64,000 nt of DNA. Origin: Haliotis cracherodii. Lineage: Eukaryota. Made by a program: the position numbers and the translations under genes. Positions 20,954 to 63,841 of the stretch are shown here, in pieces. The DNA is taken from the NCBI RefSeq assembly GCF_022045235.1, contig NW_027266264.1:1674001-1738000 (forward strand), written 5' to 3'. The stretch's first letter is position 1; every line of letters begins with the position of its first letter. Under the pieces are notes generated by a model. It saw nothing but the letters and a program-made list of their open reading frames with translations. It had not been told where the DNA came from and made no database searches.

Positions 20954-23900
20954 TTAATCTTTCTCCTCTGTGTCCAAGCGATCAAATCCTCTGTAGGTGT
21001 TGCCAAGGAAACTGGGAAGATGCAGTCGTGTCTTGGTACAGAACTTCGAAATTTTTCCTGTGAAAAAGAAAGTTAAAATAATGAAATATTCCAGTCACGT
21101 GTTGGCATTACGTATTCTCTTGTCAATATCATATTACGATTATCCCAAGGTTATTCGTTACGGAAACAAAGCTACCACTGGGTATCAGCATGTTTGAGTT
21201 TTTATCCGCCTCAGATTAAATGAAATAACCCCCACACAATAAAGGCTTATGTATCAGAACAAAGTTACCGATTAGTCTAGTATGAAGTACATGTTTTCAT
21301 ATTCGTCACCTGACTGATATATAGCGAGAACGACAGCGAATCCAAGAACCAGCATCATCCCAGACATGATAAAGACATCCGTCAAGATAGTGTCCATTCC
21401 GTCCTTAGTTGTCTCCCTTGATCTGTTCTCAGCCACAGGCGAGAGTTCAGCGTCGACTGCAGAACGGTTTCCTGCGGTACTTTCTGAAGGTAGAGGCATC
21501 AGGTAGCGTACGTGTAACTAGCTCACGGTTACAGAATAGTGCCACTGACTAGTTCATCATAGTATTGTAGCATCCTCCCACATGCTGACATGAAATACGA
21601 GTGAATTATATTACATTTAGAACAAATAAATCGTATCCAAATCTCTTTCTGTGTCAATTCAAAACTCTCGCTACGTAAACAATCCATAACCCATATTGGA
21701 AGTCTCATCGCGCGGCCTTGCCTTGCTCCATCCAGCAGTGTTGTGAAGAGGTAGTGTTTGTTTTTTGTTGATGTTTAACGCCGCACTCAGCAATATCCCA
21801 GCTATATAATCGAGTCTGAACCAGACAATCCAGTGATTGACAACATGAGCATGCATCGATTTACGCAATTGGGATCGATGACGTGCATCAACCAAGTCAA
21901 CGAGCCTGACCACCCGATCCCGATCTTTCGACAAGCGTAGTCGCCCTTTACGATGCTCATGATGTCAATCACTGGATTGTCTGTCCAGACTCGATTATTT
22001 ACAGACCGCCGTCAGAGTGCAACGTAAAAGAACAAACAATCAATATTTACTCCCGTACTATTGTACTCCTATGACCTGACGTACATGTATCAGGTCACAG
22101 GTCAATGCTTCCCGTACCAGGTTATTCAGGTCTAAGGGTTTAGTGATGCGTGACATGTATGATCTTAAAGTGACGACGTTCAGGTCTGACAGCCACATAA
22201 TTTCCACTCAGTGCAGCGATCAACGTGTTCGTATTACGGACAACTCATTTACTGTTATACCATATCCCAATTTGAACTTTTACTACTCTAATTACTGTTT
22301 ATCGATTGATGATTGAAGACTTGACCGGAAGACAACGAAAGTATAATCGTTGTTTTTTAAGTTTTGCGGATTTACACCGAGAGTTGATTTTACCATTGTC
22401 GGGGGGATGCACGTGGAAGTGATGGTGGTCGTGACCTTGTGCTTCCTCCTCCAGGAGGGGGTTCCGGGGCAAGGGGACGGCCGAGTCAGGGGGTAGTTTT
22501 CTCACAAGGTCGGGATACTTGTTTCCCCCGCGAAAAGAGAAAAGACTTCCAGTGCTGGCTTCCGCTTTAAACATGAAGATGAAGTTGCACATCTCGTTAC
22601 TGTCTGCGAATCTGCAACAAAACAAACAGCGTGCCATATATCAACCCCCTCGTTGCGTGGCACTTGTCGACATGTGCAATAGGTGGTTCATTCCTATACC
22701 CATTATCTATGACCAGCGGAGGTGAGGAGTGGCAAAGAATTCTTGTTGCGATATATTCTTCAGAGTCTGTTTCTCCCGAACCTTCACATTCACAACCTTT
22801 GCCAAAGTCTGATCGGTTGCCATTTTGAAGAGTCATAATCGGACCTGAAGGAGCATGAAGTCGCGTGGCATTTTAAGGAAATGACGTCACTCAGTGGTCA
22901 TTATAAGACGCCGAGACAACATAATCTGGTCAGTGATAAAGCAGTTTGAGCTCACCATGAAAACACACAGACCCTTTAAGATTTCGTTGGAATATTGCTA
23001 AAAGCACATGTCGGCACATGTTACGATTTTACTGACTTCATGACCCCAGAACGAGTAGATCATTGGCAATGGTCATTCACCGCTATCTTCTTGTTCGACG
23101 TCTTGATATATATTCACCGCCAAAAGAAACGCGAATACCATACATGTTGGTTAATACATTCTTCAAAAAAAGAAACTCACAGGTAGCATGTAGTTCATTG
23201 AACCTGGCTACACAAACAATCCGGTATACAAAATGGATATATGTTATTGGAAAATGTTGGTGGCTTGATATTCGTCAGCCACGCAGCCAAAACGCAGCCA
23301 CTGTCGATTTGCAATGTCTTAAACGGCATTGTTTTCACACTTGTTAAAAAATGTCATGGTGGAAAATGGTAAAGCAAAATGCACGTGCAAATTATGGCAT
23401 TCGTAACACGTGGTATTGGTTATTAAAAGGCAAGCATCAGCCAACAATGTGTCGTTCAATTGTCAGCATTTTTCAAGTTCGAAACTGCCGAGACTCAGCG
23501 CTGCGGATCGGAATATCGCTATAGGACGTATCCAAAGAGGGAACAGTCTTCTGTTGCACGCCACTTCAACGTCCATCACAGCACCATTTGCCGCCTTTGG
23601 GACCGATTCACAAAGTTCAATTCCACTGCAGACCGTCCGAGAACCGACCGACCAAGAGCTACCACCCCTGCACAGGATCGCAACATTCGACTGTTGCAAC
23701 TACGTCATCGCAATGCCACAGCTACGGAGACTGCAGGACGCATCCCTGGGTAACTGTAGTGACGCTTGCGTCACGAGATCTGACTTGGTTGTGGTTCGGG
23801 AAAATTTGACAGTGAATCGCGACATGATTCAAATTCTTCAACCTCACCATTTTCCAATCATTGACCACCAGAGGGAGTTGTTTCAACAGGACAACGCTAC

Positions 23901-26900
23901 ACCGCACACAGCTCGTGTCACAGTACCTGCATGATGCCAACATCAACGTCTTGCCCTGGCCGTCGAGATCTCCAGATCTCAACCCAATCGAACTCCTCCT
24001 GGATAAACTCTATCGACGTTTACTCAGAACACACCGCAGAGATGCACCATTTTTCTCGAGCAATATTAATGTGTAAAGTTTGGAAATCATGTGCAGCACA
24101 TCGTGATAAGAATAAAGGCACTCTGTGGTAACACTTGACTGGTTGTTAGTTTTGTCATTAAGTGGCACACATTGGAAACATCTCTTATTGTACATACTTC
24201 TCTATATGTCTATGTTCGCGTTTCTTTTGGCGGTGAGTTTCACAGAACTTACCCTGCAAATGTGGTCCGGTTTCTATCCGTTGAGTCGTAGAGACATCTT
24301 GCCACCTGCCGACAGATAATGAATGTGTCATGGGGGTATCACCACTGTCCTACAAGGGTATAGGTCACGAGTGATGGAAGCATCATCACGTGCTAACAAG
24401 AAGGAAATGGTGAAATAAAACATTTACCAACTTATCCCCAGGCTTTATGACGATGTTTCTTTGCACGGGGTAGAAAACCTAAAAATAGATGTAATAACAA
24501 TGATGAAAAACACAATATATTAATGATGAACAGGTTATGTTTCGCTCACTCAACACAGATGCACAAATCACTTTCAGTCAAACGCAGTGTTGAACGTATA
24601 ACATTCAGTTAAACGCGGTGTTGAACATATCACACATTCAGTCAAACGCAGTGTTGGACCTATTACATTCAGTCAAACACAGTGTTGAACGCATTACATT
24701 CCGTCAAACGCAGTGTTGAAATATTACATTCAATCAAACGCAGAGTTGACCAAATTACATTCAGTCAAACGCAGTGTTGAACACATTACATCCAGTCAAA
24801 CGCAGTGTTGAAATATTACATTCCATCAAACGCAGTGTTAAACCTATTACATTCAATCAAACGCAGTGTTAAACATATTACATTCAGTCAAACACATTTT
24901 ACACGTGACAGCCCCAACGCTGAAACCCATTTATCACATGCAGATTAAGTATAGGTGAGGTGTAGGTTCTCGTCGCATACGATCATAACATGTATTCATT
25001 CCTCCATACCTGAGGCCACATTGGATTTCCCTTGCCGATTTCATACCAGGATCCGTTGTACAAATAACCTGTTATTACTCTTCCTGTAACACAGAAACAC
25101 ACGCTACCATGATGACGTCACACATAGGAAAACACGGCATATTGTGTTTTTGGACCGTTCATGTAACACACAAATACACGTTTCCATGACATCATGACAG
25201 ATGGGAATACTTTTTCAGGGGTGAAATGAAACTTCGGTCAGAGGAAAACATTGCAGCGATCCCAACATTAAATGTCAGTGAAGTAACAACGGAGTGAAGC
25301 TTGGGCAGAATGCAGCTGACACAATACAACCTGGTTCGAATCCAAGGAGTCTCTGCTTAAAAAGTATCTACACAGTATGCATGCTACTTCCCCGAGGCCA
25401 AGTTTCGTTGTGATGATTGATGGATTCTGTTACTTGGAAAAGGTAGTGGGAAACGTGTTATGTATCAATATTTGAGGCACTGGAGGTATGGATGCAAAAC
25501 ATGTTATAACTGATAAACAGTAACCAGAACCACCGCTGAGGACCCTTGACCAGAACCCGCCGTCCAATGGCAGCTGAAAGCGTTTGTCAGTAGCTGAGGC
25601 TACTTGAAGTAGTTCAATCAGAATGGGGGATTCTGCAGTGTCATGGGAGGACCTGGATTCTTTCTGTAGCCGAAAATCAAATAAACCGAAAGAAATCCAC
25701 AATTATAGGTAGATAATGTAACACCCTACTTGGCTTTGTTTGTAGTTTAACGCCGCACTCAGCAATATCTCAGCTACATGACGGAAACTTGTAATAATCC
25801 AGTCTGGACCAGACAATCCAGTGATTAATAACAACACGCAATCCACCCAGCCACCTGTCTGATCCCCCGACCAAAACACCTCTGACGACATGCATAGGTT
25901 GTCAGGGGTCAATTCGTCCTCGAAATCACCACAGGGTGCNNNNNNNNNNNNNNNNNNNNNNNNNNNNNNNNNNNNNNNNNNNNNNNNNNNNNNNNNNNNN
26001 NNNNNNNNNNNNNNNNNNNNNNNNNNNNNNNNNNNNNNNNNNNNNNNNNNNNNNNNNNNNNNNNNNNNNNNNNNNNNNNNNNNNNNNNNNNNNNNACTGA
26101 TGCAGATTTATAGTTCTAGCCTACTGAGATACCATGAATACCATACTCAGACGCAGCATAAAGACTCCGGGCCGACCAGTCCCCTTTATGCCGAGCGCCA
26201 GACAGGGTAACAACAAATACCATATTTTAACGCCTTTTGGTATGACGCGGGCGGGCATCGAACCCCGGACCTTCCGCTCTTTTGGCTGACGCTCGACTAC
26301 TAGACCACGGAGGCAGTTCTGATGTGATGGAAGATGACGCTATGACATAGAGACTTCTACACGACTCTGCAAATCAGCTGTAATACTGACCCAGGTTGTG
26401 GGCATGGGGTCTGAAGGCAAATGGGTAGATGGGCGTGTCCCCCGTGTAGGAACAGCTGATGTCCACGAGGACCTCTGGAAATAAACACACATTTTGTAGC
26501 GGCGCAGGGTATATTATAGAAATGAAGTTATGAAGTAACGAGGAGAGAGAATCGGTATGAAAAGAACGGACATCACAGTTAAATAAAACACCTGATCTGA
26601 CTAAATGATGTTTCTGGTAGTTTCCTTAATGTGTATATCAAAGTTGCCTTTGCCCAGCAGACAGCGTATGTGGCGGGTCAGAAGTTCTCACAACGTACTT
26701 GGTGTTTGCGGTGGTATTCGAAATCCATTGAAGTACATCACTACCATTCCGGCTGTATATAATTCCCTGAAGATCAATTATTTACATAGAAAATTAACCA
26801 CATTTAAACAATACATCTATGCTGAGTAAAGTCACATTCAGCACATTATCAATACCTAGACTCAAACAGCGGAAACCAAATTGCAGGATTTAAAGGTAGA

Positions 26901-29900
26901 AAAGCAAGTATTTCCAATCTCATTGGAGTGAGTGAGTGAGTATGGTTTTACGCCGCTATTAGCAATATTCCAGCAATATCACGGCTGGGACACCAGAAAT
27001 GGGCTTCACTCATTGTACCCATGTCGGGAATCGAACCCGGGTCTTCGGCGTGACGAGCGAACGTTTTAACCACTAGGCTACCCGAACTCCCCTATCTTAA
27101 TTAGACATCTCTGCAGTTTTACGACCCCAAATATATCAAAATACATCATGAAACTCAATCAATTGGTGATGATACCGAAACAAAACATAAAGAATGTTGA
27201 AGCCTTTTTTCCGACTGCTATGGTAGTATGCTTTCGATCTAACCTTCGTTACAAATTCTTATCAAATGTCAGTACGGTTTTTTAATTTGCTTACCTTTGA
27301 GTTGAAACGGTCAGCCGTATTCCCGAATAATCCTTTTTTGTAGAATCTATAATATAGGTTCTTTGAGACATGATAAGTAATATATATCGTGTACAGCGGT
27401 AATTCGTGTTTCCAACACTGTGGGACTCATGGTGTATTCTGAGCCAAATATCTGCGTCCATGGCGTTTCTTTATTAATAGTGAAATTTGTCCTTTCCAAA
27501 GTAACTCAGATGGTCTATTTTAATTTTTATATCAGCTTTTCACATACGTTTACTTTACATATACAATGGGTATAAGGAAATATAACTTAATTATATACTA
27601 CATGTCTCTGTTGGTGCTTCCAACCTCAGATGTGGCGAACATTACATCCGTTACAATGGAGAAAAATATATTTGTACTGGACTGTACAATAAACTATTGC
27701 TGACCCGGATTTCTCTCTACTTTGGACATATTTGACAGGAACTGACCAGTGCCAGGTTTGGCGACTCCATGGACAGTTCTACGGGGAGGAAGTCTTACCG
27801 GTAAACCCATGTTTGTAGTGAATCTGCAGTATAAGCGTTGTGATCGTCGATCCTTTACCAATTCTGAATCCAACCCCTGGAACAGAAGAATTTTACATTC
27901 GAATAATTCTAACTTATAATAGACCTGCATAACACATATTAATGTAGGTAGGCAATTTACAGACCTAGGATTAAAACAGTCTCTCCGCTCCTTCATTCTT
28001 GTAACTTTGACAAACGTTAATTTCAATAATATGTTCTTAAACAAGAATTTGTATTCATTTGACTTAGTATTCACTTTAAATCCAAAGTTTCAGAGAAGAA
28101 ATGTCACCTTTCGGTAAACTTGTCGATGTGGCGTGTTTGGCCCAGGCGTACATGGCTTTACGTTGCCCGGACCTGCATTTGCCTCCCCTGCAGTTCCTGT
28201 GATGATTTGAGAATCCAGCAACAAGATGAACAAACACATAACGACAACAAAATGTCTATAGCGCACGACGACCATCAGAATAAGTAGCACTGTTGCCATT
28301 TACGATATCAAAAACTATGCATAACAGGTGGGCAATTCTGAAGCTGCTGTCCTGACTGTACTCCCCTTGGAGCTGAGAATGGAAACCGAGTGCACACTGA
28401 TCTTTATTTCCAGCGGAAAAATAAATCCCTTCCACCCCGTTTCGAAGTAAAAAGTTAAAAGCTGAGTCTATGAAAGTCACGTGACATAGCACAAGCTAAC
28501 CTCCGCTCAATCGAACAGCTGTTTTCTATCAATTTTGAATTTGTTTTAATTCTTTTACAATAGCAGCTTAAAACATGTCGGTGAGATAATTCGTTGTTGT
28601 GGTATCACTTGGGGAACCCCATCTACCACTCGTGATCCTTCTACAAATATTATGTTATGTGTCCATTATTACTCACTCACTCACTCAATCCGTGAAGATC
28701 CGGGATAGAAAAGGTCTTCAGCAAACCATGCTTGCCGTAAGTGGCGACCAATGGGATCGGGTGGTCAGGCTCGCTAACTTGGTTGATGCATGTCATCTTA
28801 TCCCATTTGCGTGGATCGATGATCATGACGTCAATCACTGGATTGACTAGTCCAGACTCGATTATTTACAGACCGTCGTCATATAGCTCGAATATTGCTG
28901 AGTGCGGCGTTAAACATCAAACAAACCAAACTAACCAAATCAACCAGCTCAAGTCTTTGGTCTTGGCAGTTCTCCACGTTTAATACACTCGAGCATACTC
29001 GTCTGCGAAGATTTCAAAGAGAGTCATGCGACTCTTGCTCAAACGTTAATTTGATCTACCAGCCTACAACACGTACCATACATCGGTCTGTCTACCAGCC
29101 TACAACACGTACCATACATCGGTCTGTCTACCAGCCTACAACACGTACCATACATCGGTCTGTCTACCAGCCTACAACACGTACCATACATCGGTCTGTC
29201 TACCAGCCTACAACACGTACCATACATCGGTCTGTCTACCAGCCTACAACACGTACCATACATCGGTCTGTCTACCAGCCTACAACACGTACCATACATC
29301 GGTCTGTCTACCAGCCTACAACACGTACCATACATCGGTCTGTCTACCAGCCTACAACACGTACCATACATCGGTCTGTATACCAGCCTACAACACGTAC
29401 CATACATCGATCTGTCTACCAGCCTACAACACGTACCATACATCGGTCTTTCCAAGGGGTTCTCCATTACACGCTTTGAGAGAGATGTGGTGAGCAACAC
29501 CGCCACTTGTCAACGCCTCAAATTTGACTGAAATTGAGGTGAATACATGTTAGTAATAAGCTGGTAGACACAGCTGTAGTATCCACACCGGAACAGTGTT
29601 GTAAGACTGTGTTGTTGGACTGTGTTGTTAAACTGTGTTGTTGAACTGTGTTGTTGAACTGTGTTATGGAACTGTGTTGTTGGACAGCGTTGTTATACTG
29701 TGTTGTTAAACTGTGTTGTTGAACTGTGTTGTTGGACAGTGTTGTTGGATTGTGTTGTTGAACTGTGTTGTTGAACTGTGTTGTTAAACTGTGTTGTTAA
29801 ACTGTGTTGTTGGACAGTGTTGTTAGACTGTGTTGTTGAACTGTGTTGTTGAACTGTGTTATGGAACTGTGTTGTTGGACAGCGTTGTAATACTGTGTTG

Positions 29901-32900
29901 TTAAACTGTGTTGTTGAACTGTGTTGTTGGACACTGTTGTTAGACTGTGGTGTTGGACTGTGTTGTTAGACTGCGGTGTTGGACTGTGTTGTTAGACTGT
30001 GGTGTTGGACAGTGTTGTTAGACTGTGGTGTTGGAGTCTGTTGTTGAAAAGTGTTTTTGATACAGTTGCTGGACGGTCAGTGTTGTTGTACACTGAGGCG
30101 AATTGCGATTATTAATAAGCTAGTAGATATCGCTATAGTATCTTTGAAGGAACGGTGTTGTAGGATATGAATACGACTTACAAAGCGATTATCTTGCGTT
30201 CAACTTCTATAACCGATGTATAGAGAAGATTGTCCTTGGTTCTACAACCGATGTGTGGGTTTAATTCCTTGTGGTCTACTCACCTATGTAGGTGTCCTCG
30301 GGACAGTTAGCTACATTGAAACTGGAACACATGTAAGCATCAGCCTGTAACACATGTAAACATCGGCCTTTAACACATGTAAGCATCGGTCTGTAACACA
30401 TGTAAGCATAAGCTTGTAACACATGTAAGCATCGGCCTGTAACACATGTAAGCATCGGTCTGTAACACATGTAAGCATCAGCTTGTAACACATGTCAGCA
30501 TCGGTCTGTAACACATGTAAGCATCAGCTTGTAACACATGTAAGCATCGGTCTGTAACACATGTAAGCATAAGCTTGTAACACATGTAAGCATCGGCCTG
30601 TAACACATGTAAGCATCGGCCTGTAACACATGTAAGCATCGGTTTGTAACACATGTAAGCATCTGCCTGTAACACATGTAAGCATCTGCCTGTAACACAT
30701 GTAAGCATCGGCCTGTTACACATGTAAGCATCGGCTTGTAACACATGTAAGCATCGGCTTTTAACACATGTAAGCATCGGTCTGTAACACATGTAAGCAT
30801 CGGTCCTTAACACATGTAAGCATCGGTCTGTAACACATGTAAGCATCGGCTTGTAACACATGTAAGCATCGGTCTGTAACACATGTAAGCATCAGCTTGT
30901 AACACATGTAAGCATCGGCCTGTAACACATGTAAGCATCGGCTTGTAACACATGTAAGCATCGGCCTGTAACACATGTAAGCATAAGCTTGTAACACATG
31001 TAAGCATCGGCCTGTAACACATGTAAGCATCAATCTGTTACACATGTAAGCATCGGTCTGTAACACATGTAAGCATCAATCTGTTACACATGTAAGCATC
31101 GGCCTGTAACACATGTAAGCATCGGTCTGTAACACATGTAAACATCAGCTTGTAACACATGTCAGCATCGGTCTGTAACACATGTTAGCATCAGCTTGTA
31201 ACACATGTAAGCATCTGCCTGTAATACATGTAAGCATCAGCTTGTAACACATGTAAGCATCGGTCTGTAACACATGTAAGCATAAGCTTGTAACACATGT
31301 AAGCATCGGCCTGTAACACATGTAAGCATCGGCCTGTAACACATGTAAGCATCGGTTTGTAACACATGTAAGCATCGGCCTTTAACACATGTAAGCATCT
31401 GCCTGTAACACATGTAAGCATCGGCCTGTTACACATGTAAGCATCGGCTTGTAACACATGTAAGCATCGGCTTTTAACACATGTAAGCATCGGTCTGTAA
31501 CACATGTAAGCATCGGTCCTTAACACATGTAAGCATCGGTCTGTAACACATGTAAGCATCGGCTTGTAACACATGTAAGCATCGGTCTGTAACACATGTA
31601 AGCATCAGCTTGTAACACATGTAAGCATCGGCCTGTAACACATGTAAGCATCGGCTTGTAACACATGTAAGCATCGGCCTGTAACACATGTAAGCATAAG
31701 CTTGTAACACATGTAAGCATCGGCCTGTAACACATGTAAGCATCAATCTGTTACACATGTAAGCATCGGTCTGTAACACATGTAAGCATCAATCTGTTAC
31801 ACATGTAAGCATCGGCCTGTAACACATGTAAGCATCGGTCTGTAACACATGTAAACATCAGCTTGTAACACATGTCAGCATCGGTCTGTAACACATGTTA
31901 GCATCAGCTTGTAACACATGTAAGCATCTGCCTGTAATACATGTAAGCATCTGCCTGTAACACATGTGCCTGTAACACATGTAAGCATCAGCTTGTAACA
32001 CATGTAAGCATCTGCCTGTAATACATGTAAGCATCAGCTTGTAACACATGTAAGTGGTGAGTGAGTGGTGAGTGACGAGAGATGGCTGACAGTCACCAGC
32101 ACAAGTACATTACCTCCAGTTAATGTGAAGACACGCAACGTTCAGGGATCACATCCCCTACTCAATAAACATCTGGCTCTTGAGAATTTTGGAGTATCAA
32201 GAACTAGAACTGACCCCTGTTTCATTTCATATTTAATTTCGTTACTGATTGTGATACTTTCAAGTAATGTTTTTATTTTGATCAACCCAGTGCAACCAAA
32301 ATGTGTAGCATGTATATTATGTTTGTTCTGACACTGTTTCCTTGGCTGGAAGACCCAGGACCATGTTGTTGACTGCACTGAAATAAACATTCAAATCCCA
32401 TCTGCCTTTGTCCTCAACTCAAACGTTTTATACACAAGATGTAATTCTATACTTAATATACCCATAAGATTATTATTGAATTTCAATATCCAGGTCTATT
32501 TGTTCAAAACTGAACAGCTGTGGCAAGTCATAGTGAATGCACGGCAATACACCACTGAACAGCTTTGTCCAACCATTACTTTACAACCGTCTTAGTGGTA
32601 GGAACGCTTTGTGAAGCTACCTCTCACGACATCAATTGCATCGTGTAGACTAGTCGCCCGTATACAACACATACAACCCCTTTGACTGAAAGGATTCATC
32701 AGGGCGTGGCGCAGCTTGCCACGTCACACAATATCCCTGTTATAATGCTATCTTCATAAAAGAAAAACTATACACTCTTCAAAACTAGAAACGCACGGGT
32801 AGTATGTTATTTACGGAACCTGACTACAAAAAAAAATCCGGTATATAAATTGGATGTATCTTATTAGAAAATGTTGGTGGCCTGACAGTCGAGAAACGGT

Positions 32901-34363: not shown

Positions 34364-34372
34364 CTATTTATA
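34364..34372 (-). promoter_or_regulatory. Candidate TATA box of the PHM-only gene
   Basis: TATAAATAG on the minus strand, upstream of a candidate non-coding exon (donor gtatgt near 34271, acceptor ttttagttgcag near 34062). Confidence 0.45.
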
Positions 34373-34489
34373 GCTGTTAGATGATATAACACTAAACTTA
34401 CCGGTGCTTTAGCCTGCAGTGTGTACGCATGGTTGAGCTTTTGTCCAGACAGTACGTATAGTAACGTGTCTCTGGGTGTCTATTTGCTC

Positions 34490-38314: not shown

Positions 38315-38921
38315 ATGTGGCTATGTGCGGTGCAATTATTAGAAAAAAACACAGGAGGCTGGGTTAATTCAAAATACGGAATATAACTATTCCAAATATT
38401 TCCAGTGAACATGAGCATCCAAGCAATCAAAAGTGTGGTATGTAGAATGTGGAATTCAGACATATTACATTTAAATTGAAATGTCGTCGTCGTTCATGAA
38501 TAAGCATATTCAGAACATATTTTATATTATGCTGTTATTTACGATCTCCGGAGTACAGTTCTTCTTTTGTATGCACCGTGAAAATCAGAAAATTAGTCCT
38601 TGAGGAAATAAGGACATCGGATTACACATGAATGGTTTAATAATGTCAGCTAATGACCAGAAACGGTCAGATGCATCAATTAACTACATAAAGACGATTT
38701 TGAAGTATCTCTTATTGCTGGAAAAGAATAACATCAACATTCCACGCACACGATTTGTATGTTTTGTTTCCGTAAATGCGTGGCTTGAAATTTCAAATAA
38801 ACCAACATGTCGACACACATGCTACAAATTTAACGTTTCCCGTATACTTCCCCGCCTTCAGGGCGGGGAAGAATAAACTGTCAACATGAATGGTGGGTTA
38901 TCGTGTGTTTATTACATGTAG

Positions 38922-39169
38922 TCAGTCCTCCCCAGTACAGAAGTCATCGTCTTCACTGGACAACAGTGTGAACCCTTGGTGAGACGTCCCAAGTATATTG
39001 AAAGATTTCCGGCCCTGGAAACAGGATAATGTACCTGAAAGAAATATACACAAGTTAAAACGACGTAGTTCAAAATATTGAAAATAGCAAAATTGACAAT
39101 GATCGATCGTTGTTACCGTGAACACTTTATCGACCAGTGGTTAGATATTTCATGGTAGACATCATGAAT

Positions 39170-39222
<53 letters not shown>

Positions 39223-54200: not shown

Positions 54201-57200
54201 AAATAATGGTTGTGGGGATGAGGCTGTAAGAAACGACGTTGCTCGCCACGTGTTACCGGGATGCGAGCATCGAGCAATCGCTTTACGATGGCTTTAGTAC
54301 CCTTGATTTGCTCGCCATTCATGCTGCGAATATCGCGCAAGGTTTCTTGGTAATCATTAAACGAAAGAAGTTGTCTGAAAAACGTGTAATGCCTCAGGAC
54401 GTATCTCGCCATGTCTGAATCGTACGGTGTCACACTCGACAATGAAACGTACTCGTGAGACTTTGATCTTAAATAATCATAAAAACCGTATAACCCAACT
54501 TACATAGAACCATATACATACATCCATGTCATATATAGAACTGAAACACAATAGACATTTTCTCTGTTTTTATTGACTCGTCTACCACTCTACAGGAAGA
54601 AAGATCGTGTTATATGGTAGAACACGTGAAACAGTACTTGAAATAGTCACAGATAAAGCGAGTCACATACGCATCATTGCGTGTTTTGTCTGTACAAAAC
54701 ATCTGTACGATATCTCGTAAACTAGCACTATTTCTACATTTCTGTAACGCGTAATATAAACAATAGAATCCACAAGCACTCGAACTAGATTGCTGTAAAT
54801 CAGACGTGTTATATCGATAACTGCGAGAATGTTTCTTGATAAAATATTTAAATTCACGATGATAGTAACTTGGTTTCTGTCCATAACTATCAAAAAACTC
54901 GCCGACTCCACTCCCGTCAAAGTAAAAGTCAACCCAATGTTGACCCTCGCCACGTGCTAGGTCCGTGTTAGCCACACATCCCCATGGTTTTCCACTGAAA
55001 GGTACGGTGATGTTAGCTAATGTATCTCTCGCGTACACACCCACCACGTGTGTACGGAGGCTGGGGTGTGTTCGGATGGCACACTGTAACTGTCGTTTGT
55101 ACATTGTCTACTTTAGAAACACGTTTCGGCTTTGGTCGATTTCGATGAGGGCCGGAAACTTGGCCAGGGCGATGACGTTGAAGGTATGGGCGAGGGCTTG
55201 AGCAAACTGGACTTCTAGTCGTAGATTACCCGACTTGACCAGATTCAGATATTCCCCTCTGTTGACTTGGATGTCTTGCAGGTTAAATACGTACAAGGCA
55301 TGACCTACGGAAAATTCCGTGCGGTCCAAGTTCAAACCTTTGTCTTTACGCCATTCGTTATTCCAGTCGTACAGACCGGCGTAAGCCTCGACGTCGTTCG
55401 ACTCTAACGGTCGTCCAGGTACACTGGTACCGTTCAAGTACAGTCCCATGCTTTTAACGATGTCGCCTTGGAAACAGAAGGGATTGGCCGTGTACGATCC
55501 GTTCACCCCATCGGACCTCACCAAGGCGACCACGAGTCGACTGGGGACTTCGTCTTGAAATATGGCATCCCAGTTAAAACTCAGACTGGACGAGGCGACC
55601 GAGGCCATCTTGACCATGGATCGTTCGTACGGGTACAGGGCGTTGGCTTTTTCGAACTGTTTGTTGTGGGCCACGATGAGAGCGTCGTTGATCCTCAGTT
55701 TGCATACTTTCAGGTACACGTCTTGTAGTTCAATGTTATATTCCTTGCTACTCTCTCCCGACATCAAGACGAAGGATGTGTTGGATCTGAATAGCTTGAT
55801 GCCGACATCCACGCCGTTCACCAGATGACGGTCGAAACCGAAAACGTCTTCCATAAGGGGCCCTGTTAGGGTGATCGACTTGCTTCCGGCGATGAAGCTT
55901 CCGCGGTTGATGAGCCCATCGTTTCCACCGCCGTAAGGATCAGGGTCATCAAAATCAACCACGGTTTCTCCCGAATCTTTGTAATACAGCTGACTGGTCA
56001 GCTGACTGGACTTGGCATCGGCGCCGTAGTCGAGGACGGTTTCCATGAGAGCTTTGTAAGGATAACTGGCATTGCTGGAGCTAACTTGTTGTCCCTGTAG
56101 GAACACGCTCACCTGATTCCACAAGCTGTGCAAAGTGAGGTTGACGGGCCCTACTTTTTCTTTATCGGCTAAGGGCGTTTTGTCGGTGTGAGTGACTTTG
56201 AGTTTGACGTGAAGTCGGGTCTTGCTCAAGTCGATGTAGTCTTTCCCTCCATTCACGGTCTCTTTCAGAAATGAATGCGATGTTCCTTCTGCACACTTTA
56301 TATACACTTCGATTTCTGACGATAACGGGTAAGTACCATGGCTGGTGAAAATAATATTTGGGTCCGTCTCTCAGATTGAGTCGTCTCAATAAAGGTAGAT
56401 AATTCTCACCCACGTGTGAACTGTCGCACAGATTACACAACACGTCAATGGTGGTATTATTGATATCTTTCAACTCGACTCGTCCTAGTTTCATTTCTAA
56501 CAGAGCCACCATCCACATGCCCTCCAGTTTCAAATGTTGAGACAGTTTCACCCAGAAACGGTAAGGCGTGTTGTCCGGATAATACTCCCGGGAGTCTGCA
56601 CTGTTAAACACGATGTATTTATCCATTTTACTTGTCCTTCACTTCGCTTGCTTCTACCTAGGAATCGAAACTCGATGGCCAACCTGCCCACCTGACTAAA
56701 TAGTACAATTTTTTCTCGTTGTCTTTCTTTTTCTTTAACACTTTTTCGATATCCCATGTGTCATCTAAATCTTTATCGACACGCTGTAATTCTTCTCCGT
56801 AAAAGCGTCCCTTTAAGAACTGGTCGTGAAAATCTTTCAGTGTGTATAAAGGAATACCCTGTCGTCGATAACGGGCTGCTACTTTAAATAACTCTTCCGT
56901 CCATCTCAAGTTGTGTTCCTAAGCAAAACGTTTTCTCCAATAACTGATTCTCACGATATCCCCTATTTTATATTGAAAGGAACGGAACTTGTGTGACATG
57001 TATGCTGATGGTTTCATGTATAAATGTCCCCATACTTTGACTTCATTTCGTTCATTCACATCTGTAGGGGCCCACTCGCCTAAGCTTCTATGTACTGTGT
57101 GATTGTAATTATACACTAAATCGGGTAGCACGTCCACATAGCGCTCGGTGTTCTTGTGTGTCAGATACCTCGCTATGAGTGACCTCAACGTTCGAATGAC

Positions 57201-60200
57201 TCTCTCGGCGTAATTCGCTTTAATGTCTTCGTTCTGATTGACAAACAATTTGATCGACTGACGCTCTATAAAATCCTTGAATATCCCTTTAAATTCCGTT
57301 CCTTTGCCCACTCCGATCTTTTGAGGTGCACGTCCGTGCGATAGGATGGCTTTAAAGCCGTCGACGATGGACTCGGGTTTCTTGTTTTTCAAAGGGGCTA
57401 CCCACAGATAGCGAGACAATATGTCAATGGCTATCAGCACGTAACGTACACCACCGTTCACTTCAGCATAGCGACTCATGTCCATCAGGTCCACATCCCA
57501 CTGTTCATCTACTCGGTTGACGAGTACTTTGAGGCGTTGAAATCTTCGATTCACCGACTTATGAATTGTGTAAGCATTGTGCTTGCTCAACTCGGCTTTT
57601 ACCTCAGGCACACCCAACGTTTTACCACGTCTTTTTAAACTTTGTTGAAATTTGGAGGCACCACAATACGCACCCGGGGACTTGGGATTAAAGTAATAGC
57701 TCTCTAACTCGTTCTGTCTAGACGACGACGGTGTTACATCTGACTTACTAGACATGTTTCTGTGTCGTGTGGTAAATTCAAATGTGACCACCCATCTGCG
57801 CATATTCTCTTTATATACACAGCAAAGTTAACAAACACATGCATTATTCAATACTATCATGCTTTATTATATAGAATAAGTCATGTGAATTCAACTACCA
57901 TACGAATAGCTATTAACACAAGTCAAGGATTTTCAACTACGAGGAGTAATGTTTTTCAAATATTAACATTTTTACAGCACGTCGCTTCAATTGTTCAAAC
58001 CATTCTGGGGTTTTGAAATACGAGTTGCGGTAATCTTTACACTGATAAGGTACAAAATTAAAGGAATCTTTCAATGATGTGTCATCAGCTAAAATGCTCA
58101 TCCATCGATCTAACACACGTACATCCTTGAGATCATTCATTGACATTGTAAAGTATTTGTCCACCTGTTCCTCTTCCGTCAAGCGAGAGGTATGGGTTTG
58201 TTCACCATCTGCTTCAAACATACAGCCAAAACACAATTCTCGGGAAAGTTGACAAATGAGTTAAGTCACTTCCAAGCAGTAACAGAGCGACAACAGTTCC
58301 TCAGCATGCTTGCGCGTGTGGTGCGCATCTAGTTCGTCGACACATAAGGGGAATGTTCTGATCTTCTTGATGATTATTCTTTTGGCTGTATCATCATTGT
58401 CTGGCTGAAACATATTGTCAGCATCTTTCACACATTCTTTCCGATTTTGAAACCAGTCTGGTGATTGAATTATTGTGTTTTCCTGTAGCTGTTCGGGTTT
58501 GCGGTGCACGGACTTCCAGGAGTAAAAAAACGTTTTTTCACTCGTCATTTTTACAGAATGTTACTTTCTCACGACGCCTGATGTAGATGGATGCGACACT
58601 GAAGACGGTCTGTGCTATGAATGATTAGTTATGCGAGGACTAACGTTTTATATACCATCTAATTTTGGAAAATGATATCATAGACTAATTAAGACATGTT
58701 CGTTGCGTACAACTGTCACTAAAAAACCAGCAGACGACTGTCCAAAAGCAGACGAACGTTTTTCTTATTTGCATCTAACCCGTTGAAGACGGGGGGACCG
58801 CTAGCAGACGACGAACGGGAAACCGCTAGCAGACGACGAGCACCTGTGCCAACACCTTCACTCCGCTTGTATCAATACCATCCTTTGTCCCCATTGTTAC
58901 CACATCTTTAGGGAGGTTTCAACGGTCTAACGCACATTCAAGTACCCCCCTCCATTGTCTACTCGCTCGCGCTTCATCGCTTTCCTTTGAAATTGGGAGG
59001 TAAATGCTATTGTTGTCATGAACTACTAAGTTTTCCTCTACTGATATTCCATTGGGCGGAGAACGGGACATCCGCGCTGGCCGTAACAGCCGACTAGGTG
59101 TAATCGGATGGTTACAAGGTGTACCTCGTAGGGTACGGGGTCGTGTGACCAACTGGATCGGTGGTCAGACTCAGTGGTCAGGCTCAGTGGTCAGGCTCAG
59201 TGGTAAGGCTCAGTGGTCAGGCTCAGTGATCAGGCTCAGTGATTTCGTTAATGGCGTGTCATCGTGGTTCGTTGTTTACAATATCGATCACTGAATTGTC
59301 AGGTCCAGACTCCAATGTTTACAAGCAGCCGTCATATGGCTAGAATAGCCGAGTGTGGCGTTTGACAAAAAACATACAAACGTATGTCATGTATCCCTAT
59401 CGGTCTGTTGGGTTCAGCTGCATTTATATACTTGATATTGCTTCATACGCCTCAGAAGTTATTGGATGAAGGTTAAAACATTCAACGCATCAGAAATGCT
59501 TTCTAAAGCCTTTTGGTAAACATGTGGAGGACATTTCCAAATATGATGCATCAGTGATAAAAGTTATGTCCGACGCTATTCCCTATTTTGACTTGTACCA
59601 TATGTTCCCGTATTTCTCCATGTGAACAATTGGCTTGCCTTTGCATGTGTTTGTGACAGTTGTCACCTGGGGCCAAGATACGTACACCTGGTATCATCAC
59701 TATCATGTACGGAATCGTACAGTCGACTCTGCTTTGGGCAAATATTTCTGTTGAATAGGGAAAGAGTTCCGTCCCTTTTATTAGTGGTTATATTACTCAC
59801 TGCGGCGCACAATACCATTCACTCACTCACTTTCGTTATGTACCATTATGAAGTGATGGAAATAGCTCAACCATGGCCGCCGCTAAATACGTAGGTCTGG
59901 ACAAGACAATAAGAGGTTAAAACTATGAACAACGACCTACGTCGTTGGGGGCGATGATGACCGACATTGACCATCTCACCGAGCCTGACCACCCCTAATA
60001 TAGTCATATCTCACAGAGCCTGGCCACCCATACCGAGCCTGACAACCCATACCGAGCCTGACCACCCGTACCGAGCCTGACCACCCATACCGAGCCTGAC
60101 CACCCATACCGAGCCTGACCACCCATAACATAGCCACATCTCACCGAGCCTGACCACCCATAACATAGTCACATCTTACAGAGCCTGGCCACCCATACCG

Positions 60201-63200
60201 AGCCTGACCACCCATACCGAGCCTGACCACCCATACCATAGCCACATCTCACAGAGCCTGGCCACCCATACCGAGCCTGACCACCCATAACATAGCCACA
60301 TCTCACAGAGCCTGGCCACCCATACCGAGCCTGACCACCCATAACATAGCCACATCTCACAGAGCCTGGCCACCCATACCGAGCCTGACCACCCATACCA
60401 TAGCCACATCTCACAGATCCTGGCCACCCATACCGAGCCTGACCACCCATACCGAGCCTGACCACCCATACCATAGCCACATCTCACAGAGCCTGGCCAT
60501 CCATACCGAGCCTGACCACCCATACCGAGCCTGACCACCCATACCATAGCCACATCTCACAGAGCCTGGCCACCCATACCGAGCCTGACCACCCATAACA
60601 TAGCCACATCTCACAGAGCCTGGCCACCCATACCGAGCCTGACCACCCATACCATAGCCACATCTCACAGAGCCTGGCCATCCATACCGAGCCTGACCAC
60701 CCATACCGAGCCTGACCACCCATAACATAGCCACATCTCACAGAGCCTGGCCACCCATACCGAGCCTGACCACCCATACCATAGCCACATCTCACAGAGC
60801 CTGGCCACCCATACCGAGCCTGACCACCCATACCGAGCCTGACCACCCATACCATAGCCACATCTCACAGAGCCTGGCCATCCATACCGAGCCTGACCAC
60901 CCATACCGAGCCTGACCACCCATACCATAGCCACATCTCACAGAGCCTGGCCACCCATACCGAGCCTGACCACCCATAACATAGCCACATCTGACAGAGC
61001 CTGGCCACCAATACCGAGCCTGACCACCCATACCGAGCCTGATCACCCATACCGAGCCTGACCAGCCATAACATAGTCACATCTCACCGAGCCTGGCCAC
61101 CCATACCATAGCCACATCTCACAGAGCCTGGCCACCCATACCGAGCCTGACCACCCATACCGAGCCTGACCACCCATAACATAGCCACATCTCACCGAGC
61201 CTGGCCACCCATACCGAGCCTGACCACCCATAACATAGCCACATCTCACAGAGCCTGACCACCCATAACATAGTCACATCTCACAGAGCCTGGCCACCCA
61301 TACCGAGCCTGACCACCCATAACATAGCCACATCTCACAGAACCTGACCACCCATAACATAGTCACATCTCACAGAGCCTGGCCACCCATACCATAGCCA
61401 CATCTCACAGAGCCTGGCCACCTATACCGAGCCTGACCACCCATAACATAGCCACATCTCACCGAGCCTGACCACCCATAACATAGCCACATCTCACCGA
61501 GCCTGACCGCCCATAACATAGCCACATCTCACAGAGCCTGACCACCCATAACATAGCCACATCTCACAGAGCCTGACCACCCATACCATAGCCACATCTC
61601 ACAGAGCCTGACCACCCATAACATAGCCACATCTCACCGAGCCTGACCACCCGTAACATAGCCACATCTCACCGAGCCTGACCACCCGTAACATAGCCAT
61701 GACAGGGCTTTATCAGCAGTGGTTGACTGTATTTTACTATGTAAAGGAGAAACGCTAACACACAGAGAGTGCGTTGCGTTTTCATATAAATAACTCCCTG
61801 TATATTTTTAGAACTTACACATCTATCACCAGGTGTTCTACATACTTACTGGGTGTATTCGGCGGTATGGCAAACCGTATGCTCTCCAATAAATATATTC
61901 CTGCTGCATATTTCTGTCTGCAACGACACATATAGGCGTACTGAAGTAACTGCATGCATCAAAAAACGTAAATCAAAAAGCTCTGGCTTACTGTCTGTGT
62001 GAAGTCCTGAAAGTCGTGGTTTCGTATTGGTTTTATCATATACATCACTCAATACCACTGGAATTCAACAGATTGGAGTGTAAATACACCCCACACCAAC
62101 TTAAGATACTGCATTCAATTATTTCGTTTAATGTACAAGTCTAGATACCAACAAAATGTTTTGCCCATTTGTTTGGATTTCTTCAGGTGGTCTAGAATTA
62201 ATATCCTTAACAAAACATATGATAACCAGGGGAATATTGTATTGTATGGCGTCTGTGAAGGAAACGACTATTCTGAAGTTATGGACTATATGTTATTTGT
62301 AGCTATATTTAGTATATACCAGTCTAAAGTAACTGAAACGTAGCTGTCATTATAACATATTCCTTAAAGCCGTGTTATCTTACGCTACAGATGACTTAAG
62401 TATATTAAGTCACCCATTGGTTCCAAACTAAACGTTCTCGATGCCAATTAATAAATAGTATTATTGGAAACAATATCCCCGGATCCGCCTGTCCACGTCG
62501 TATTATACCACGGTTGTAAAAACGTAGAATCATGGTGTAATAAAGATACTAAAAATGATTATATGTATAGTTGATATATGTTCTGCTCTTCGCAAGTATT
62601 ATTCACAAAATACCGAGAAGGTTGACACTGTCCTTACCGTTCTGGTGTTATAAAAATGCGGATTCCGGAGAAGTCTTTCGGTGCAGATTCTGAAATCAGA
62701 ATTACATTAACATTACAGAAGAGAAATATGCTGTGGCGTGCTGCCCATTCCCAGTGAAGACTCTGCCAGATGGACAGGACTATCTGTGCACGGGAGCAGG
62801 CACAGAAAGGTAGGTCTTGTATGACTTGAGAGGACATACGCGTTCTAGGTCCCGTCGGCAATATTTCCAGCCAAGGTGTACCTGGAGTACTTCACACAAA
62901 CATAAGACTGTCAACTGACAGGAGCCTAGTCCTCCTCCTCCTGGTATGACAGTAACACTGGTTTATGGGGAGATGTACACTAAGAGGGGTTCTTGCCCAG
63001 GAGTGTACCTCAAAGGTGTGACAATACCTACCCTATACATCAGAGTTGTGACAATACCTACCCTATACATCAGAGGTGTGATAATACCTACCCTATACAT
63101 CAGAGGTGGTGCAATACCTACCCTATACATCAGAGCTGTGACAATAACTACCCTATACATCAGAGGTGTGGCAATACCTACCCTATACATCAGAGGTGTG

Positions 63201-63841
63201 GCAATACCTACCCTATACATCAGAGCTGTGACAATACCTACCCTATACATCAGAGGTGTGGCAATACCTACCCTATACATCAGAGCTGTGACAATACCTA
63301 CCCTATACACCAGAGGTGTGGCAATACCGACCCTATACATCAGAGGTGGTGCAATACCTACCATTAAATGCATGCTGGAAGTGAGTCTGTAACACAATAG
63401 TTTTGATGGCGGATCCTCTCCCGACTCTAAAGCCAACGTCTGTAAAACACATAAATATTTAAGTAGCATTTACAAGCTGGTTATGTAACTGTAACAAGAT
63501 GGATGATCAACGTCTTTACAGAGTTGAAGTGATACGTGGATGCAGGTTCGTTACCTTATTTGGACAATAGCATATTTTGTTATGCCAGTTTGAAGTGACT
63601 GGTGCTAAATTATTGCCAGGCACGTGTTCTGCAAAGAAAAATTGTGCCAAAATAAACTTGAAACTTTGACACAACTTTACTATATCCACTGAGATTGTGA
63701 ACTGAGTAATGTAGACATGATTGTTTTGTATAAACTGTAAGTAACTGGGTACCGTCTGGTAGGGGTGTGGGTGGGACACCTTGTGCACAGGCAAACAAGA
63801 ACACCTCTGACGCGCCTTGCTGACAGACACCAGGACATTTC
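38922..63841 (-). CDS. PAM: PAM-like protein (PHM + degenerate PAL + TM + cytosolic tail); 5' exons lie beyond the window
   Basis: Exons: 63841-63753, 63439-63362, 62689-62638, 61917-61850, 50398-50315, 49737-49664, 49515-49465, 48620-48568, 47880-47492, 46561-46414, 45928-45821, 45482-45410, 44869-44730, 43805-43708, 42270-42076, 41568-41453, 39836-39722, 39579-39454, 39034-38922; phases compatible. PHM motifs LQTHF, FAYRTHSHGLG, GNPQWPQ, DEMCQFYMMYY. PAL/NHL motifs LGQVVGVA..IFHRG, FYLPHG, HFCQPSDVAV, NPHDV. Confidence 0.9.
39175..39248. repeat. Compound microsatellite (CT)n(CGAT)n
   Basis: Direct reading. Confidence 0.95.
39790..40710 (-). repeat. 27 bp tandem repeat derived from PAL exon sequence (HDVTVDSxD), with duplicated acceptors
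   Basis: Plus-strand unit gagtcaactgtcacatcgtggtccatg. Acceptor-like gttacacag copies near 39838, 39977 and 40703. Confidence 0.9.
40782..41275. mobile_element. MITE with long imperfect TIRs
   Basis: cccgaggcaggggagttaa...ccttgccgaactgg is mirrored by ccagttcggcaagg...ttatctctcttgcctcggga. A second copy lies at about 44022-44500. Confidence 0.75.
42806..43133. repeat. 36 bp tandem repeat x9
   Basis: Unit cacattaatgtatggggtgtacatgtacacatgtgg. Confidence 0.93.
43545..43766 (-). repeat. 73 bp repeat x3 made of a PAL exon end plus donor
   Basis: ttcctccgtcgtc starts at 43571, 43644, 43717. Minus-strand unit cacgttcctga..gacggaggaaagtgttgct|gtgagtat. Confidence 0.88.
44022..44500. mobile_element. 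MITE, same family as 40782-41275
   Basis: Shared agttaactgactgtaaaa..tgccgaact..ggaatttcaggg and interior; TIR-like ends. Confidence 0.72.
47575..47752 (-). repeat. In-frame 30 bp coding repeat x6 in the PHM-PAL linker
   Basis: (D/E/N)VPLS(Q/P)AP(G/A)L repeats within exon 47880-47492. Confidence 0.88.
47994..48102. mobile_element. Short palindromic MITE
   Basis: ggggcccgttccacaaagcgatcttagcgct / agcgctgagatcgctctatgggacgggacccc. Confidence 0.7.
48641..49318. repeat. 20 bp minisatellite, about 34 copies
   Basis: Unit gtgaccaacaacacaagcag. Confidence 0.95.
50550..51185 (+). CDS. Polinton-associated hypothetical protein (211 aa), open copy
   Basis: Open ORF with a CxxC motif (LCFGC). The mirror copy at 58548-57937 has an internal stop. 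Confidence 0.65.
   Translation: MILVEENLVTSEKTFFYYWKYVHRKPEQLQENTIIQSPDWFQNRKECVKDADNMFQPDNDDTAKRIIIKKIRTFPLCVDELDAHHTRKHAEELLSLCYCLEVTKLICQLSRELCFGCMFEADGEQTHTSRLTEEEQVDKYFTMSMNDLKDVRVLDRWMSILADDTSLKDSFNFVPYQCKDYRNSYFKTPEWFEQLKRRAVKMLIFEKHYSS
51319..53313 (+). CDS. Fusion ORF: integrase + chromodomain + minor capsid (partial) + major capsid (N-terminal half)
   Basis: 664 aa open frame. DDE triad WDVDL / SMDKGTEF / YAERVIRT; chromo-like IEKVLKKK..YLVRWAGWP; penton-like HVGENYLPLLR..PWYLPV; capsid DYIDLSKTRL..NASYPYKA. Confidence 0.85.
   Translation: MRRWVVTFEFTTRHRNMSSRSDVTPSSSRQNELESYYFNPKSPDAYYGASKFQQSLKRRGKTLGVSEVKAELSKHNAYTIHKSVNRRFQRLKVLVNRVDEQWDVDLMDMSRYAKVNGGVRYVLIAIDILSRYLWVAPLKNKKPESIVDGFKAILSHGRAPQKISMDKGTEFKGTFKDFIERQSIKLFVNQNEDIKANYAERVIRTLRSLIARYLTHKNTERYVDVLPTVHRSLGEWAPADVNERNEVKVWGHLYMKPSAYMSHKFRSFQYKIGDIVRISYWRKRFAKEHNLRWTEELFKVAARYRRQGIPLYTLKDFHDQFLKGPFYGEELQRVDKDLDDTWDIEKVLKKKKDNEKKLYYLVRWAGWPLEMKLGRVELKDINNTTIDVLCNLCDSSHVGENYLPLLRRLNLRDGPKYYFHQPWYLPVIVRDTSEIEVYIKCAEGTSHSFLKETVNGGKDYIDLSKTRLHVKLKVTHTDKTPLADKEKAGPVNLTLHSLWNQVSVFLQGQQVSSSNASYPYKALMETLLDYGADAKSSQLTSQLYYKDSGETVVDFNDPDPYGGGNDGLINRGSFIAGSKSITLTGPLMEDVFGFDRHLVNGVDVGINLFRSNTSFVLMSGESSKEYNIELQDVYLKVCKLRINDALKKHVCSKQSEIWCSWYVG
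53432..53950 (-). CDS. A32/FtsK-like DNA packaging ATPase, C-terminally truncated
   Basis: Walker A GGTCSGKT, Walker B ILVLDDLM, then HH..I..LLQ..Y.KG..RT.S.N and NPR motifs. Confidence 0.88.
   Translation of the reverse strand: MSEKCLLPFITTTTLSVIGGTCSGKTYWTKRLLENASRVFHKPPDLIVYRYGVWQDLYADVQQSIANIQFHESLPSKSQLRLWSDQSSKNMILVLDDLMMDICTSKLMLNVYTTLSHHLGITVINLLQSVYPKGPCSRTVSVNTHMFVLMSNPRSAHEYKILASQIFPGQSK
54005..54442 (-). CDS. Basic hypothetical viral protein (145 aa)
   Basis: Arg-rich open ORF, co-oriented between protease and ATPase; no recognised family. Confidence 0.6.
   Translation of the reverse strand: MSSVTPYDSDMARYVLRHYTFFRQLLSFNDYQETLRDIRSMNGEQIKGTKAIVKRLLDARIPVTRGEQRRFLQPHPHNHYLRMLRRIARPDTTKRSIKRTLLNHTPLIQFYIFEYEHVRQVRDKAQRALQRLARRQQRPLVPRAA
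54610..55104 (-). CDS. Adenain-like capsid maturation cysteine protease
   Basis: ANTD...GQHWV, EFFDSYG, LQ...SSACGFYC (His-Asp-Gln-Cys). Confidence 0.92.
   Translation of the reverse strand: MYKRQLQCAIRTHPSLRTHVVGVYARDTLANITVPFSGKPWGCVANTDLARGEGQHWVDFYFDGSGVGEFFDSYGQKPSYYHREFKYFIKKHSRSYRYNTSDLQQSSSSACGFYCLYYALQKCRNSASLRDIVQMFCTDKTRNDAYVTRFICDYFKYCFTCSTI
55108..56307 (-). CDS. Polinton major capsid protein (double jelly-roll), N-terminus replaced by the minor-capsid C-terminus
   Basis: DYIDL, LHSLWNQV, YPYKA, QLYYKD, NGVD..IKL.R, NPFCF, C-terminal GNLRLEVQFA..IEIDQSRNV. Confidence 0.9.
   Translation of the reverse strand: MYIKCAEGTSHSFLKETVNGGKDYIDLSKTRLHVKLKVTHTDKTPLADKEKVGPVNLTLHSLWNQVSVFLQGQQVSSSNASYPYKALMETVLDYGADAKSSQLTSQLYYKDSGETVVDFDDPDPYGGGNDGLINRGSFIAGSKSITLTGPLMEDVFGFDRHLVNGVDVGIKLFRSNTSFVLMSGESSKEYNIELQDVYLKVCKLRINDALIVAHNKQFEKANALYPYERSMVKMASVASSSLSFNWDAIFQDEVPSRLVVALVRSDGVNGSYTANPFCFQGDIVKSMGLYLNGTSVPGRPLESNDVEAYAGLYDWNNEWRKDKGLNLDRTEFSVGHALYVFNLQDIQVNRGEYLNLVKSGNLRLEVQFAQALAHTFNVIALAKFPALIEIDQSRNVFLK
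56250..56626 (-). pseudogene. Minor capsid (penton-like) protein, frameshifted by an 11 bp deletion
   Basis: SADSREYYPDNTPYRFWVKL...L.G.W.VAL.E and VG...PLLR motifs; lacks gagagacacgt, which is present in the + arm. Confidence 0.8.
56658..57803 (-). pseudogene. Polinton integrase-chromodomain with a nonsense mutation and loss of the second catalytic Asp
   Basis: Mirror of the integrase part of ORF 51319-53313. TAG at 56919-56921 in place of AAG; GVGKGTEF in place of SMDKGTEF. Confidence 0.88.
57937..58548 (-). pseudogene. Interrupted copy of the 211 aa viral hypothetical protein
   Basis: TAA at 58261-58263 where the + arm has AAA. Confidence 0.7.
59975..61700. repeat. Complex SINE-derived minisatellite
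   Basis: Mixed modules ccgagcctgaccacccata and acatagccacatctcacagagcctg; the core matches the SINE family B segment gagcctgaccaccc. Confidence 0.9.
63010..63362 (-). repeat. 30 bp tandem repeat x12 starting at a PAM splice donor
   Basis: Minus-strand unit g|gtaggtattgcaccacctctgatgtatag abuts exon 63439-63362. Confidence 0.9.

Follow-up and report, generated by a model that had tools for sequence, protein, structure and literature searches.

The window, that is, the whole 64,000-nucleotide stretch of Haliotis cracherodii DNA analysed here (C1:1674001-1738000 of a 1.18-Gb genome), spans part of a head-to-tail tandem triplet of PAM paralogs on the minus strand: PAM1 (P0004 and P0006; 105355-73431, beyond the window end), gene A (P0077, 822 aa, 22 exons; 66332-38922), and gene B (P0098, 452 aa, 14 exons; 34030-20954), where coordinates above 64000 continue the window numbering into neighbouring stretches. 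H. cracherodii RefSeq proteins matched the window and these stretches letter for letter, and exact spliced mapping of P0077 and P0098 located genes A and B where a first-pass annotation had placed them. Gene A starts 7,099 bases past the PAM1 stop, and 4,892 bases separate its own stop from the start of gene B, whose stop codon has its final base at position 20954. The first-pass annotation had described a tandem PAM locus of two paralogs; the tandem arrangement held, and a two-gene locus was ruled out by a third paralog, the intact PAM1, which lies outside the window 7.1 kb upstream of gene A. PAM1 is bifunctional, with every PAL catalytic residue present in the alignment.

The three paralogs share GT-AG ends at every mapped intron, identical intron phases 1-12, and equal lengths of exons 3-11. 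Exons 4-22 of gene A lie in the window (38922..63841, minus strand) and encode PHM, a PAL-fold domain, a membrane anchor, and a cytosolic tail (PF01082, PF03712, and PF01436), with exons 1-3, which encode the signal peptide and His107/His108, past the window end (64322-66332, minus strand). The PHM portion occupies exons 4-12 (47492..63841), exon 4 starting at 63841 and exon 12 terminating in a Pro-rich repeat linker; exons 21-22, for the anchor and a short acidic tail, lie at 38922..39579. Gene B (20954..34030, minus strand) encodes a weak signal peptide (hydropathy 0.66), PHM, a His-rich linker, a membrane anchor, and a tail; PF01082 and PF03712 were its only Pfam domains. A masked stretch (25940-26095) sits within one of its introns, clear of every exon. 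Gene B is not a read-through portion of gene A, as an in-frame stop precedes its ATG in the same exon. No more B-like copies were found in the genome, where counts are lower bounds, and a weak search found no gene B ortholog in H. asinina. In H. rufescens, the annotated protein P0079 (1684 aa) joins PAM1 and gene A and is likely an annotation artefact, and P0099 (268 aa) is a second, slightly different B-like model, either another gene copy or a duplicated haplotype.

Splicing was assessed in contigs from four public runs of three organisms, which are presumed to be RNA and carry no tissue labels. Among the junctions listed, at least 10 of the 13 in gene B were found in three runs and at least 9 of 13 in the fourth, and two runs bridged the last intron; the PAL-less join of exons 12 and 13 occurred in all four. 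For gene A, the stretch 43400-48100 contains the PHM-to-PAL join and four more junctions, all five of which were found in three runs and three in the fourth. As the RNA nature of the runs is presumed, no ranking of genes or tissues by contig depth is given. Pseudogene status, processed or unitary, was rejected for both genes given their open frames, GT-AG introns, and spliced contigs.

Intron 7 of gene A (50577-58545) carries a mobile-element insert in which about 2.7 kb occurs twice, inverted and 99% identical. The insert includes an integrase core frame (weak PF00665), and other frames presumably resemble ATPase, capsid, and protease genes of Polinton-type elements; a Pfam search of these remaining frames gave no match. 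Introns at 30284-32100, 39850-40900, 48550-49450, 29040-29500, and 43463-43760 contain tandem repeats of adjacent splice-site and exon-edge sequence. PAM1 has repeats of the same type ahead of exon 18, and such repeats disturb the H. rufescens gene models P0094 and P0100. CLCA-type exons (Pfam CLCA and VWA), apparently of more than one copy, were found on the plus strand at 3674-18420, downstream of gene B.

Active sites of the PHM domains

Residues are numbered as in rat by alignment to chain 5wm0_A, to which gene A aligned across both domains (E 2.6e-124). Both PHM folds were recognised in genes A and B (PF01082 and PF03712 above cut-off), and the AlphaFold model of gene A matched rat PHM with a TM of 0.84-0.89. 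The copper ligands and the roles of Arg240, Tyr318, and Asn316 are those given in PMC12164859. All six ligands, His107, His108, and His172 of CuH and His242, His244, and Met314 of CuM, were retained in both genes, as were the carboxylate anchor Arg240 and Glu313. In gene A, the codons of His172, Arg240, His242, and Met314 lie at 63383, 50336, 50330, and 47861, respectively.

The secondary substrate anchors, Asn316 and Tyr318, were not both preserved in either gene. Gene A carries Asn316Gln together with Tyr79His, at another position of the PHM substrate site, and across four Haliotis species its residue 316 is Gln or Lys, again with Tyr79His. Gene B carries Tyr318Ile (ATC, 22578..22580, minus strand), which is also found in H. 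rufescens. Two further replacements were confined to the window's genome: Trp141Cys in gene A and Cys334Arg in gene B (CGC, 22530..22532, minus strand), the latter position being Cys in H. rufescens. The first-pass annotation had reported that the visible copper ligands were retained and that substrate-site residues were altered; both observations stood, the former extending to His107 and His108 of gene A outside the window and the latter leaving Arg240 unchanged.

The PAL domain in genes A and B

In gene B, the final PHM exon (22611-22394) is followed by the 910-base intron 12 (21484..22393, minus strand) and then by the membrane-anchor exon (21483-21310). Searches with two PAL domains as queries (tblastn and blastn) found no PAL remnant in 1-38900, and the same queries gave 30 protein-level and 66 DNA-level matches in the control stretch 38900-47000. 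The PAL exons of gene B were removed by a frame-keeping deletion at intron 12, and neither gene nor transcript contains PAL. An assembly or annotation artefact and PAL exons hidden in the intron were both rejected, given the exon 12-13 junction in contigs and the lack of a remnant. By its predicted domains, gene B is an ordinary kind of gene, encoding PHM alone with a membrane anchor.

In gene A, exons 13-20 (39722..46561, minus strand) maintain an open frame, supported by mapping and contig junctions, and are predicted to form a PAL propeller. The best fold match of this six-bladed NHL domain was rat PAL 3fvz (E 3.2e-31; TM 0.88 by target), and the AlphaFold model had a mean pLDDT of 76, with low values in linkers and tail and values mostly above 85 in the PAL domain. 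The alignment showed Tyr654Phe (TTT, 43802..43804), His690Ser (TCC, 42233..42235), and replacement of Arg706-Glu707-Asn708 by Cys-Met-His (42179..42187), all on the minus strand, and the Tyr654-Arg706 dyad is accordingly Phe and Cys. Of His585, His690, and His786, which we take to be the zinc ligands, the second is lost. Arg533, Trp538, His585, His786, and Asp787 were retained, the first two of which we count among PAL functional residues. H. rufescens gene A, the second half of the fused P0079, carries the same set of substitutions, and H. asinina (P0003) and H. rubra (P0002, partial) carry it with His690Pro; the Cys-Met-His triplet is identical in all four species.

A Tyr654Phe change renders PAL inactive. 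Among 41 highly conserved PAL columns (at least 90% conserved in 72 well-scoring PAL rows and common to PAM1), three were changed in gene A, exactly Tyr654, His690, and Arg706, and all three belong to the set of six positions with a catalytic or metal role (P = 0.002, hypergeometric); losses this selective disfavour general decay. Retention of His786 and Asp787 is weaker evidence, since their codons lie in a likely gene-conversion tract from PAM1 (39738-39836, exon 20), where 93 of the first 99 bases match, compared with 60-78% in 14 other exon pairs; gene A of H. asinina also retains both residues. According to PMC10303134, the catalytic dyad is Tyr/Arg, rat Arg706Ala loses 97% of activity, and human Arg703Gln leaves 1% of PAL activity with normal PHM activity. 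A targeted literature search for residue-level PAL mutagenesis gave no match.

The PAL-fold domain of gene A looks lyase-dead as judged from its residues, and gene A is best described as a PHM with a genus-conserved pseudo-PAL. Among the three paralogs, PAM1 alone combines PHM and a catalytically complete PAL in one chain. These results agree with the first-pass claims that one gene had deleted PAL, that the other kept an open but eroded PAL, and that both appeared to have abandoned lyase activity; at the sequence level, gene A has no dyad and gene B no PAL domain.

Divergence, phylogeny, and lyase inventory

Orthologs of gene A in H. cracherodii and H. asinina were 80.1% identical in PAL and 76.2% in PHM, compared with 87-88% for PAM1. 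Identity to PAM1 was 62% for gene A and 50% for gene B, with all six copper ligands surviving. Paralog dN/dS was 0.20 for gene A PAL, 0.16 for gene A PHM, and 0.27 for gene B, values that are rough because dS is near saturation (1.2-2.5) and that also average over the PAM1 branch. Between the window's genome and H. rufescens, PAM1 differed at 4/276 and 4/312 residues, gene A at 11/277 (PHM) and 10/316 (PAL), and gene B PHM at 24/275, seven of the 24 lying near the Met314 strand (residues 284-313). These protein distances were set against a simulated neutral yardstick, which predicted 12, 18, and 21 changes in gene B PHM at assumed divergences of 2, 3, and 3.5%, a range of the same order as the intron-piece divergence of one contig-source organism. 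Gene B PHM lay at or above this yardstick, and gene A PHM and PAL lay below it only if divergence is at least 3%. The PHM branch between the two close species was about eight times that of PAM1 in gene B (0.079 vs 0.009) and about four times in gene A; conserved PHM columns changed in gene B numbered 4/43 here and 2/43 in H. rufescens. Gene B is either relaxed or under diversifying selection. The first-pass annotation had named absent expression or neutral evolution of both genes as evidence against its proposal. Spliced contigs were found for both, and gene B is near neutral, so that this objection applies in part to gene B.

To place these changes in the family, gene A was searched against 50% cluster representatives. 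Of the 150 proteins among the matches listed, 117 had a domain covering 70% of the profile with a score above 120 and were retained (73 with both domains, 14 PHM only, and 30 PAL only); the library is clustered, and these figures are not species counts. Both dyad residues were lost in two of the 73 bifunctional proteins, Nucella P0008 and P0156, and two more carry a single change: P0217, and P0151, in which PHM is dead as well. Tyr654, His690, and Arg706 were each retained in 99 of 103 PAL domains. The Nucella protein has changes in six of the 41 conserved PAL columns, five of them within the catalytic or metal set, and in 0/43 conserved PHM columns. Among 83 copper-intact PHMs, none had a change at Tyr318 and two had one at Asn316, H. 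rubra gene A among them. Anchor changes this rare could indicate impaired or different chemistry in genes A and B rather than a mild shift.

In the PHM tree, gene A joined Haliotis PAM1 (98/95) and gene B lay beside both (94/87), with the Haliotis group apart from Patella and from the Littorina-Nucella group. The PAL tree agreed, and a single clade of gene A and Nucella was rejected (p-AU 0.002), which on this constraint also rejects a common origin for the dead PALs of Haliotis and Nucella; P0156 formed a long branch of unsure placement. On these trees, the dead-PAL layout is of independent origin in Nucella. The conservation of the dead PAL of gene A across the genus, with such independent parallels, had been underplayed in the first-pass annotation.

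Two own-genome searches found PAL exons at PAM1, gene A, and a standalone PAL (C1:76.498-76.509 Mb), and revealed no further PAL locus; Arg533, Trp538, His585, Tyr654, His690, Arg706, Glu707, His786, and Asp787 were seen in the exons of the standalone PAL. At least two tandem PHM domains, one with two alternative Met314 exons, lie at G000:C1:38033239-38104173 and possibly form a multi-PHM gene; no PAL was found in C1:38.03-38.14 Mb. No clear PAM-type match was obtained at C19:1.45-1.49 Mb or C5:7.26-7.31 Mb. The present locus was missed by a Pfam search of the genome, whose matches were chiefly to other copper monooxygenases. Contig C5 holds more than 20 matches to other copper type II monooxygenase genes, a large expansion. 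The inventory of PAM, PHM, and PAL genes that had been proposed as a check yielded two intact PALs and at least two further PHM domains.

Three outcomes had been envisaged for the pair: a pathway stopping at alpha-hydroxyglycine, a separate PAL acting in trans, or non-canonical substrates. With two PAL domains in the genome bearing every catalytic residue, PAM1 and the standalone gene, a trans-acting PAL has the strongest support among the three. PMC3241674 reports that the hydroxyglycine intermediate of mouse pituitary is free, quickly cleared, and base-labile, and that PHM is the slower step, PAL turnover being about five times that of PHM; with these properties and the intact PALs, a pathway that stops at the intermediate finds no support. 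Given a free intermediate that decays in base, a slower PHM, and a faster PAL, extra PHM copies would need no PAL of their own, which would explain the loss of PAL catalysis after duplication. A dispensable lyase leaves the retention of the gene A domain unexplained, for which a binding or routing role seems likeliest. PAM with an inactive PHM still acts as a cargo receptor according to PMC8793981, in which PAL was not examined.

Functional interpretation and known systems

We favour, with slightly better than even confidence in the explanation as a whole, that genes A and B, both spliced, arose as tandem duplicates of the adjoining intact PAM1 and likely act as membrane-anchored hydroxylase-only enzymes, with the standalone PAL or PAM1 likely supplying the lyase activity. 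With Arg240 and all six ligands in place, both proteins would bind copper and hydroxylate the C-terminal glycine of secretory-pathway peptides, and the one secondary anchor changed in each suggests that preference among glycine-extended substrates would be shifted. The alpha-hydroxyglycine product would be cleaved in trans or decay without an enzyme, and either fate could be afforded with PHM as the slower step. The domain of gene A would then be a lyase-dead pseudo-PAL selected for a non-catalytic job, most probably binding of peptide cargo or product, or aid to folding and routing.

The two genes alter nearly fixed anchors differently (Asn316 with Tyr79His in gene A across four species; Tyr318Ile in gene B across two), which may reflect a change of job: both would oxidise other carboxylates (a narrow class of peptides, for example, or N-acylglycines), or would yield alpha-hydroxyglycine peptides as an end product, with the dead PAL of gene A binding and shielding it. 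A pseudo-PAL that lost its dyad yet kept Arg533 and Trp538 would suit such a role, as would the differences of gene B gathered around the Met314 strand, and PMC5461114 and PMC6669573 list glycine-extended lipids as PAM substrates and side reactions of bovine PAM, respectively. We nevertheless regard a change of job as unlikely: no copper ligand is lost and both Arg240 and Glu313 remain, the genome has intact PALs for an intermediate described as labile in PMC3241674, and the Nucella dead PAL lies beside a PHM without a changed conserved column, so that PAL loss needs no new substrate.

Long PHM branches in both genes, together with loss of Cys334 in gene B and Trp141Cys in gene A in the window's genome only, could equally signal decay of one or both, with gene B drifting to a pseudogene and gene A persisting as a non-catalytic granule membrane protein, a cargo role documented for PAM in PMC8793981. 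This appears improbable given the open frames of both genes and their splicing in three organisms, and given that the copper ligands survive at 50% (gene B) and 62% (gene A) identity to PAM1, that so few conserved PHM columns have changed in gene B, and that gene A is intact in H. asinina. Cys, Met, and His are typical soft-metal ligands. Cys706, Met707, and His708 might join His585 and His786 in a rebuilt metal site, giving the domain some residual lyase activity or making it a redox or copper-holding module for PHM; the triplet shared by four Haliotis species and the two remaining zinc histidines would argue for it. In Nucella and P0156 the site was lost through unrelated replacements, and Arg706 alone accounts for most activity in rat and human according to PMC10303134; we judge a rebuilt site just as improbable, if not a little more so.

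Returning to the favoured hydroxylase-only reading, a split into PHM-only and PAL-only genes is already known, and the new part is a PAL that is predicted to stay folded but is stripped of exactly its catalytic residues. Its retention across the genus, and independently in another snail, suggests that the PAL propeller has a non-catalytic function, a point of relevance to the granule cargo-receptor role of PAM and to human variants that kill PAL and spare PHM. The intact, pseudo-PAL, and PAL-less neighbours form a natural series for testing propeller function, and the changed anchors are natural variants at almost fixed family positions. More tentatively, and with low probability, a PHM with a retained pseudo-PAL may be a recurring undescribed enzyme type in which the dead propeller binds product or metal, and the products of the abalone pair may differ in class from those of PAM1, for instance oxidised glycine conjugates that are not peptides, or stable peptides ending in hydroxyglycine. 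That the pair represents a new branch of the amidation pathway, as the first-pass annotation had suggested, seems doubtful to a similar degree. No report of abalone PAM paralogs, or of a natural dead PAL fused to PHM, was found in the literature searched, which is thin on subscription journals where much PAM work appears.

Bifunctional PAM (rat PAM-1; 5wm0, PHM 1sdw, and PAL 3fvz) and Haliotis PAM1 resemble genes A and B in domain order, anchor, tail motif, copper ligands, Arg240, and intron positions; in contrast, gene A lacks their Tyr654, His690, Arg706, and Glu707, gene B lacks the PAL domain, and each has a changed substrate anchor. For Conus bullatus, PMC3040727 gives a single bifunctional PAM contig. 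Separate PHM and PAL genes beside bifunctional PAM occur in planarian and scorpion, and the pairing of a hydroxylase-only gene with a separate PAL, also known from Drosophila, resembles gene B in layout (PMC5461114 and PMC6669573). The same papers describe planarian and scorpion PHMs as soluble, the scorpion ones in a clade apart from PAM, whereas gene B is a membrane-anchored PAM1 derivative that arose by exon loss; they give catalytic residues as conserved or make no mention of a dead PAL, unlike gene A. A raised PHM:PAL ratio by duplication is also seen in another gastropod, Lymnaea stagnalis, whose PAM has four PHM and one PAL in the account within PMC6669573. The Lymnaea copies sit in one precursor, whereas the abalone copies are separate genes, one with a dead PAL, and a possible abalone multi-PHM gene is the other locus at C1:38.03-38.10 Mb. 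The closest counterparts of gene A are Nucella lapillus KAL8575177.1 (P0008) and P0156, uncharacterised database proteins that share an intact PHM, a PAL without catalytic residues, and a membrane anchor, but that differ in their substitutions and have a canonical PHM substrate site.
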